A stretch of DNA of 61,408 bases, the filler included, from Stramenopiles sp. TOSAG23-3 (lineage: Eukaryota): NCBI GenBank assembly GCA_900128585.1. It is 20 parts of 20 records of this genome, joined end to end, with 100 filler letters (N's around TTAATTAATTAA, not from the genome) between each part and the next. Parts side by side here need not be neighbours in the genome. Positions count along the whole stretch, not along the records: positions 52,333 to 55,293 come from LT644497.1; 19 more parts are not named here. One strand, written 5' to 3'. The notes below the pieces were generated by a model. The model had not been told where the DNA came from. It did no database searches and saw nothing but the letters and a program-made list of their open reading frames with translations. Below, piece by piece: positions 52,412-53,759 of this stretch. Position 1 is the stretch's first letter. Each line of letters opens with the position of its first letter. The position numbers were made by a program, and so were the translations under genes.

Positions 52412-53759
52412 CGAGGACCACGCAGACGCCCGCTTTGTTGTCAGCAATGTCGGGAAACATTCGGCAGGAAGCAAGCAGGACAAAATGGAATATTTTCAAC
52501 CCGTGCAGCAGATCATGCCGGCAGAAATCACCAAAAACAGAGTGGCGAACAACGACTACGGGCAAACCATTATTTTTCTGTCTCATCAGAAGTACGTTCT
52601 TCTCTTTCATAGCGGCAACCATGCCCTTGGCAAACACAGTTACCTGCTCGTTCAGATCATTTGAAATAAACTGAAACCTGAAGCGCACGTAGAAGTGCAG
52701 CAGGCGCAGTGCTTTCCATACATCGTATTTTGTGCAGTATAGGCAGATGCGGGACATCTCTACCAATGCCTTTTCACGCCCGGCTCGGAACGGGGTGGGG
52801 AAGCTGCCGATCAATTGAATTACAAGCGCGCTTTTGTGCTCCGTGCATCTGGCAGACGCAATGTCGTCCTTAGGCGCCTGGTCGGACGGCCGGCTGGTGC
52901 CCGACTCACCGCTCCCCCATGCGATGGACGCAATAATAGACTTGAGGGATCGAAGACGGCCTTCGGCCTTGCCCTGCCTGGCCTGGTTCACGAAGGAGGC
53001 GTACGCTTCTTGGAAAACTTGGCCATCGTTCTCCGGCTGCTGCTCAAGCTGACCAAGGGCCGGTAGCGGGGAAAAAAGCAGGCCTGGGTTCGCCATCTCC
53101 ATGGGTATGCTGTCCAGCCAGCCCCAAGCTTCCGGCTGGTCCAGGGATTCGACGTCGTTCCCTGACAAGGAAGGTGACATTGGTCGCTTTCCAGTCTCTA
53201 GGGACGACACTGCAAGGGTTCTTAGCAGACCCTCCTTCTCTTGCTCGTTGAACCCGGACTTCTTCATTACCCTGAGCTCCTTCAGAATGAGTTTTACAGA
53301 GCTCTCCAACCCCTTTATGTCTTCCCGCACCTTCTCGATGTCGTTCTTTGGTCCGGCAGAAAATGAAGGCTTCGGGGGCTTTTTCTTCGATGCAGAGGCT
53401 TGGCCCACCCCCGTGACTTCCCGCTTTCTCTTCTTCGCGCGTGCCTGCTGGCTCGCGGAAGACTTTCTCACAATATGTACTAGAAGGTCAGGCCTGTCCC
53501 GACGGAAGTAATGGTGCCTGAACTCGTACCGGGCGCTGGCTGTGCGCTTAAAACCGTAGACACTGAGTTGGTGTAAAAAAGACGGAAATGCGTTTGAGCG
53601 AAAGTACTCACACAGGACATTTTGACAAAATGACTCCTTGTTTTTTATTTCAAAACTCTCCCCAGTCTCGCTCCAAGCCCATACACCACTGCAAACAGAG
53701 GCGGGGTCCTGAGCAAGTTTTCCTATCAAGTGAAGTTTTCGGACAAACGGCTGAAGGTT
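52412..53759 (-). CDS. Heat-shock-factor DNA-binding domain protein with coiled coil and CRAL-TRIO-like C-terminal domain (both ends incomplete)
   Basis: PFVRKL...WSETGESFEI...F...VL.EYF...SFLHQLSVYGFKR...EFRHHYFRRDRPDLLVHIVRK, then a CRAL-TRIO-like region starting CLYCTKYDVWKALRLLHFYVRFR. Confidence 0.88.

Follow-up and report, generated by a model that had tools for sequence, protein, structure and literature searches.

A stretch of protist DNA in which a heat shock factor (HSF) appears to be joined to a lipid-binding domain raises two questions: whether such a protein exists outside the assembly that displays it, and what a factor with a departing recognition helix and a Sec14-like partner might do. 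The window, i.e. the whole stretch of DNA analysed, is 61,408 bases long and consists of 20 scaffolds of 2,957-2,990 nt each with N-flanked linkers between them, and neighbours in the window are not neighbours in the genome. The gene in question is carried by the scaffold at 52333-55293 (the LT644497.1 part), which is contig C5238 of the assembly G000. On a separate scaffold, 48098-49168 (minus strand) holds what we take to be the C-terminal portion of a gene for a TOR-like kinase (kinase plus FATC-like end).

A genuine fusion gene cut short by an assembly fold-back

A stop-free frame runs on the minus strand from 53759 to a stop at 52350-52352 and, as an earlier note on this DNA had described, holds an HSF domain, a basic tract, a heptad segment and the C-terminal motifs listed there without interruption. 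The full protein obtained by homology search, P0002, is 570 aa long and identical to the window protein over 451/451 residues, after which the two differ; the same length is found in five of the seven members of its cluster. P0002 starts with MD ahead of NLQPF, and the start codon is supplied by X2, X4 and X15. Its parts follow one another as HSF DNA-binding domain (DBD), basic tract, four-heptad coil, WxWL[DE]S motif and Sec14-like domain (Table 1).

Table 1. Features of the fusion gene and of its scaffold. Positions are those of the window; residues are those of P0002.
Feature	Residues	Position	Strand	Basis or remark
N gap	first two (Met-Asp)	53760..53792	-	hides start codon and first two residues
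HSF-type winged-helix DBD	7-101	53463..53747	-	PF00447, human HSF2, orthologue
Recognition helix SFLHQLSVY	62-70	53556..53582	-	alignment to HSF2
Basic tract, putative bipartite NLS	109-132	53370..53441	-	sequence; NLS function predicted
Four-heptad coiled coil, putative short HR-A-like oligomerisation segment	143-167	53265..53339	-	heptads and model
WxWL[DE]S motif in acidic linker	214-220	53106..53126	-	kept in both species; candidate AHA-like
Helical segment before Sec14-like domain	241-297	52875..53045	-	near gap-free alignment between species
Degenerate CRAL-TRIO/Sec14-like domain, N-terminal part	298-453	52406..52874	-	HMM, HHalign, Foldseek
Fold-back copy of intergenic DNA, 79 nt		52333..52411	-	inverted ends; encodes false tail FHNCFCNCFWDERFIFLI; assembly artefact
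True genomic copy of 79-nt segment		55222..55293	+	X2 record 14 and X4 record 22 cross junction

The gene was compared in 4 of the 24 listed independent runs, with four RNA runs of shares under 0.2 left out of the count. No joint was found inside it in any of the four, and both domains lie on one contig in two of them: X2 record 7 spans 52406-53759 with 3 differences, and X4 record 16 spans 52472-53759. Parts of both domains are also covered by RNA run X15, in three separate records, and a single frame at locus L040 encodes residues 16-570. A chimeric junction between the domains, which the earlier note had flagged as a possible objection, is absent from the single contigs of X2 and X4 and from L040, and the fusion of HSF and Sec14-like domains is genuine and non-chimeric.

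The scaffold itself ends in 79/72-nt inverted copies of one segment. The 79-mer occurs a third time at the end of contig C3586, where it is followed by a sugar-transporter gene of divergent orientation (ORF on L002/L005; Pfam Sugar_tr, E 9.5e-88). Contigs of X2, X4 and X15 depart from the window at 52406 with the continuation found in P0002; because the gene agrees with independent sequence down to that position and then diverges, the break lies within the 6-nt overlap 52406-52411. Since X2 record 14 and X4 record 22 read through the other junction, at about 55222, the copy there is genomic and the one at the end of the gene is the fold-back. The apparent tail CFHNCFCNCFW is therefore the inverted segment, as had been supposed, and its reading as a metal-binding motif was rejected. 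The same note had the domain cut at 52412; it is cut by the fold-back, but in independent assemblies it is full-length, and the truncation is a feature of this assembly, absent from the organism. The remaining 117 residues of the Sec14-like domain, missing in this assembly, are present in P0002 and L040; in G000, the one query used did not recover the 3' part of the gene. Elsewhere in the window, scaffolds 24686-27663 and 30841-33817 end in exact inverted copies of 79 nt, which probably makes one end of each scaffold a fold-back chimera.

That the gene is an amplification or assembly chimera, or that its C-terminal region has nothing to do with Sec14, we regard as very improbable. In its favour, a fold-back chimera is indeed present in the scaffold, and inverted ends of this sort occur on 3 of the 20 window scaffolds. 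However, the continuity of the gene across the runs and the presence of the same fusion in a distant orthologue stand against chimerism, which is already largely refuted.

This orthologue, P0010, was one of two matches among 7,999 scored candidates in the full-length search, the other being P0002. It comes from a second species, is 724 aa long (E 9.9e-81), has its parts in the same order, and aligns with P0002 at 52% identity in the DBD and 34% in the final 345 columns; it belongs to a cluster of 28 members, with at least 10 of 722-724 aa among the 15 listed. The host DNA has a GC content of 32% for P0010 (L041, L042) versus 47% for P0002 (L040), and GC3 is even along each gene, within its own range. 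The shared layout together with the difference in host GC indicates that the fusion is older than the split of two well-diverged species. Polymorphism amounts to 2 synonymous and 0 other changes in 438 codons, and to 1 and 4 in 725 codons, the 4 lying in the linker, counts too low for a selection test. Runs containing the gene are marine wherever the habitat is stated. No SSU rRNA was found in G000 in a stricter first look; the host may be a marine stramenopile.

No synteny of the two species was seen in the flanks examined. Downstream of the fusion gene, at a distance of about 3 kb, L040:4831-5856 (minus strand) holds a 342-aa frame with a C-terminal DnaJ domain, a stretch similar to TatD-associated radical SAM proteins (TIGR04038, E 1.2e-10, below cut-off) in which no CxxxCxxC motif was seen, and an N-terminus resembling an organelle targeting peptide. 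Upstream of the orthologue, a long frame at L041:5-2851 (minus strand) combines a bromodomain, SAP and SP-RING (zf-MIZ), which is the layout of a PIAS/SIZ-like SUMO ligase plus an extra bromodomain. At L041:4800-5010 and L042:4800-5010, a stop lies four codons before the first conserved residues of P0010, with no in-frame ATG and an acceptor-like AG just upstream; a 5' intron is likely, and the database start of P0010 is therefore probably miscalled.

The representative search with half of the C-terminal domain gave two matches, P0002 and P0009, the latter rejected as an unrelated repeat protein. The viral and prokaryote collections had 117 and 48 pattern matches, of which 0 proved to be relatives, and no orthologue beyond P0002 and P0010 was found in the representative, viral, prokaryote and contig searches. 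The half-domain search missed P0010 and a search with the P0010 region missed P0002; since each search missed a known member and is thus insensitive, two species are a lower bound. The architecture, unfamiliar to the earlier note, is apparently rare, with two 90%-clusters as a floor in the searches run, and no description of an HSF fused to a CRAL-TRIO/Sec14 domain was found in the literature searched, which was mostly open-access and excluded supplementary domain tables. The pairing is easily overlooked because database records give only the HSF domain, the second domain lying below Pfam detection.

The DNA-binding half, its altered helix and the linker

The N-terminal domain matches PF00447 with 69 bits (cut-off 22, E 5.5e-19) over residues 5-99 of the window frame, and a PDB sequence search with it returned 18 HSF sequences at E <=0.001, including the DBD of human HSF2 at E 1.3e-12. 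It is identical to that of the orthologue at 57/96 residues. The motif SFLHQLSVYGF starts at 53582, with the His codon at 53573-53571. In the alignment to human HSF2, His65 occupies the site of HSF1 Arg71 and Ser68 that of Asn74, in both species; the replacement of the consensus Arg that contacts G, which the earlier note had read from the motif, is thus borne out. The helix SFLHQLSVY is identical in every listed member covering it, 6 of the 7 in the P0002 cluster and 15/15 in the P0010 cluster, and S62, Q66, Y70, K73, R74, R100 and K101 are kept in both species. The four other complete HSF domains in G000 retain the Arg and occur without a Sec14-like domain. One HSF paralogue, at L011:1258-2811 (plus strand), has the helix SLIRQLHYY, with the Arg kept and His at the Asn site.

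Between the two species, residues 53-75 are identical at 20/23 positions versus 37/73 for the remainder of the DBD (Fisher p 0.003); over the same region, pairs among the four other HSF paralogues of the genome share 6-14 of 23. This conservation argues for a kept role of the helix surface. In HSF domains generally, conservation is highest in helix 3, so the 20/23 shows constraint on the surface and not what the surface binds.

In canonical HSFs, the Arg at the His65 site makes a bidentate guanine contact and the Asn at the Ser68 site a water-mediated one (PMC8379338), and the Arg of SFxRQ reads the G of nGAAn (PMC8379338, PMC11059408). The human HSF4 mutation R73H, at a residue corresponding to HSF2 R63, is described as destroying recognition of the heat shock element (HSE) in a modelling study that cites experiments (PMC7337047). 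As the same exchange is found here at the same site, canonical reading of nGAAn has probably been lost. Changed specificity, the conclusion drawn by the earlier note, is only one reading of the Arg-to-His exchange, and loss of sequence-specific binding is another. A protein of the latter kind would act as a decoy or co-factor: by way of the coil or the DBD surface it would associate with canonical HSFs and dampen or redirect them, perhaps with the Sec14-like domain in control. Both base-reading residues are altered, as such a decoy would lead one to expect, R73H is reported as a loss of HSE recognition (PMC7337047), and the four Arg-keeping HSF domains of the genome could be its partners. We nevertheless consider it improbable, given that conservation in the helix region far exceeds that of the domain's other parts and that the basic backbone-contact residues and the activator-like motif are kept.

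Downstream of the DBD, KRK and SKKK of the basic tract are retained in the orthologue. The coil comprises four heptads rather than a full bipartite HR-A/B, and 8/8 of its a/d positions are hydrophobic in both species. A three-copy model scored 0.47, versus 0.09 for the best of 3 controls, with contact agreement between runs of at least 93% and pLDDT of at least 66; only three copies were tried, so that the model does not discriminate the oligomer number. The mark used was calibrated on two copies and is passed by 21/30 solved homo-pairs and 0/23 monomers (17/29 and 0/30, respectively, in eukaryotes), and the pass may be due to resemblance to solved coiled coils. Going by this model alone, the coil may self-associate.

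The low-complexity linker between the halves measures 72 versus 181 residues in the two species and is unalignable apart from the acidic WxWL[DE]S motif, for which the alignment score was reached by 10/2000 shuffles. The motif fits the description of the plant AHA activator motif (PMC4746267) and is a candidate AHA-like activation motif.

A Sec14-derived domain that has lost most phosphatidylinositol-binding residues

Ahead of the C-terminal domain, residues 241-310 are identical at 14/70 positions between species, and residues 241-297 are helical in a low-confidence model. The core that follows shows 76/193 identities and is colinear in both species from the N-terminal helices through the LPxxMxG end motif. 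The Pfam search that the earlier note had proposed gave a divided answer: HSF_DNA-bind was found in the window protein, but CRAL_TRIO (PF00650) and CRAL_TRIO_N (PF03765) were absent at E <=10 from it and from both full-length proteins, P0002 and P0010, nor was there a hit in P0001 or the cut domains. The domain has no Pfam or NCBIfam match at all, and the half present in the window gave 0 matches at E <=10 in a PDB sequence search. Four weak V-ATPase rows, obtained with a two-species profile against the PDB (E 0.5), were rejected as chance.

Kinship emerges from profile comparison. An HMM built from 27 CRAL-TRIO proteins of G000 gave P0010 a score of 20.2 bits and P0002 one of 7.6, versus at most 2.5 for 400 shuffles. 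HHalign with the two-species alignment gave 93.5% (E 2.3e-7) for a match of 122 columns, 96-217 of about 340 and thus in the N-terminal half only, whereas 60 shuffles reached at most 5.7% and the reversed alignment 0.4%. For the C-terminal half, kinship comes from motif order in a 21-row alignment that uses 19 of the 27 paralogues. The CRAL-TRIO/Sec14 identity claimed by the earlier note therefore stands on profile kinship beyond all shuffles, while a Pfam match is missing.

The best-scoring paralogue is the stand-alone L027 (25.3 bits). A quick tree did not confirm it as sister (76%, weak) and left the donor subfamily unresolved; the stem branch leading to the two fusion domains is long, at 2.12 changes per column. 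At E <=0.001, a transcription-factor domain was seen in none of the CRAL-TRIO ORFs that G000 yielded, 27 in all. Two CRAL-TRIO proteins of G000 have multidomain layouts, namely CRAL-TRIO with DEP and PH (L019, contig C3509) and PH with CRAL-TRIO (L032, contig C4022).

Structure prediction with Foldseek, also proposed by the earlier note, was partly favourable. For the unseeded AlphaFold model from two rows, Sec14-family chains rank first and make up 35 of the 37 rows listed, but the model has a pLDDT of 39.7, the best E is 0.16, and VIA-align returned no Sec14 chain among 50 rows, its hits (Z <=6.6) being dismissed as helical-bundle noise. A seeded model reached a pLDDT of 71.5, Foldseek E 9.8e-7, and Z 13.9 with rmsd 3.9-4.2 over 229-237 residues, its fold being partly circular since the alignment was seeded with 19 CRAL-TRIO rows. 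Its top matches, equally circular and a matter of compatibility, are CRALBP, alpha-tocopherol transfer protein and Sfh proteins. ESM Atlas features matched CRAL-TRIO clusters at 0.87-0.90, which serves as a lead only. The doubt that the C-terminal region is related to Sec14 at all could thus draw on the missing Pfam match and on the VIA-align result for the low-confidence model; against it, the profile tests lie above all shuffles.

The residues by which Sec14 binds phosphatidylinositol are R65, K66, T236 and K239 (PMC4945147). The corresponding residues are T345, K346, E517 and F520 in the fusion and T, K, L and N in the orthologue, the last two sites being placed by a weak alignment. Only one of the four (K66) is kept, which counts against a ligand-gated protein. 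On sequence grounds, the domain is best described as Sec14-derived and should not be classed as a phosphatidylinositol transfer protein.

These losses allow a reading in which the protein is a transcription factor of new specificity and its Sec14-derived domain, free of ligand, acts as a scaffold, an oligomerisation surface or a partner-binding surface. Along with three of the four phosphatidylinositol residues, many family-conserved positions have gone, and the long stem branch and the lack of a Pfam match point the same way. However, the whole domain remains colinear in both species, and Sec14 folds are reported to adopt new ligands, such as heme in Sfh5, where the phosphatidylinositol residues are kept (PMC7462610). 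We regard a ligand-free domain as possible but rather unlikely.

The domain could also anchor the protein at a membrane or lipid droplet, keeping the factor out of the nucleus until the lipid state shifts and it is released by dissociation or linker cleavage. Sec14 domains work at membranes, and the long, low-complexity linker of variable length would suit such a design; on the other side, the residues for the phosphoinositide head group are lost, and in the alignment we noticed neither a conserved cleavage motif nor a membrane anchor. An anchor of this kind seems to us distinctly improbable.

Possible working and comparison with known systems

The DBD, nuclear signal, coil and activator-like motif make the protein read as a transcription factor, with the retained pocket-fold domain as its input. 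Our tentative reading, for which we would claim somewhat less than an even chance, is a non-canonical HSF-type factor with non-HSE specificity that is gated by a hydrophobic ligand. Such a factor would enter the nucleus via the basic tract, oligomerise via the short coil and bind DNA at an element different from nGAAn, using backbone-contact residues that are still in place, and the WxWL[DE]S motif might serve it in activating transcription. A hydrophobic molecule other than phosphatidylinositol would sit in the Sec14-derived domain, which might allosterically alter DNA binding or activity in the way that the START domain of plant HD-ZIP III proteins does. A bolder version, which we think possible but unlikely, is a nuclear-receptor-like switch in marine protists, in which an HSF reads a new element through His in place of Arg while the Sec14 pocket senses a hydrophobic metabolite, such as a sterol, isoprenoid or pigment derived from prey. 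If true, it would be a class of ligand-gated factors independent of nuclear receptors and START factors, as well as a natural example of rewritten HSF specificity.

What appears new, judging by its residues, is an HSF-domain protein that departs from the canonical recognition helix and carries a Sec14-derived domain departing from the phosphatidylinositol-binding pattern. To our knowledge, the helix-3 Arg is held to be indispensable in HSFs. With a protein in which His is fixed and conserved at this site, one can ask directly if the HSF fold is able to read a different sequence. If the Sec14 pocket is wired to the DNA-binding domain, it would provide a further route to lipid-controlled transcription. 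Signalling in the host organisms is nearly unstudied, and each half, as a small soluble domain, lends itself to expression and assay.

A comparable order of parts exists in fungal Skn7/Prr1, which, as in the fusion, combine an HSF-type DBD and a coiled coil with a C-terminal signal-input domain; the input there is a phospho-receiver domain, not a lipid pocket. Canonical HSFs (human HSF1/HSF2/HSF4; PDB 5d8k, 7dcu) likewise have an N-terminal winged-helix DBD followed by a heptad segment, and their helix-3 Ser, Gln and Tyr and C-terminal Arg-Lys are also kept in the fusion, which differs from them in Arg71 to His, Asn74 to Ser, a coil of about four heptads and the added Sec14-like domain. Canonical members bind arrays of nGAAn and are responsive to heat or proteotoxic stress. 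The cataract allele R73H of human HSF4 has the same substitution at the same site (PMC7337047); it is a disease allele, whereas the His of the fusion is fixed in two distant species with its neighbouring residues conserved. Mouse HSF5 resembles the fusion in its atypical HSF domain and is reported to have a non-HSE target preference and a non-stress role, but it keeps the Arg (SFIRQ) and still reads GAA, and no lipid-pocket domain is described in the portion of the source drawn on here (PMC11059408).

On the C-terminal side, CRALBP (4ciz/3hx3), alpha-tocopherol transfer protein (1oip), yeast Sec14/Sfh1 and the paralogue L027 have profile homology and motif order in common with the fusion, which in contrast to them lies below Pfam detection, keeps one of four phosphatidylinositol residues and is joined to a DNA-binding domain. 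Members of that superfamily typically have a hydrophobic cavity for a lipid ligand. The closest analogy in order is provided by the plant HD-ZIP III/IV START factors, with a DNA-binding domain, a zipper and a lipid-pocket domain (PMC10226595). The folds are unrelated (homeodomain and START), and the HD-ZIP III START domain is reported to bind phospholipids and to gate DNA binding, so that the gating demonstrated there may, in the fusion, have a counterpart built from an HSF domain and a Sec14-derived one (PMC10226595).
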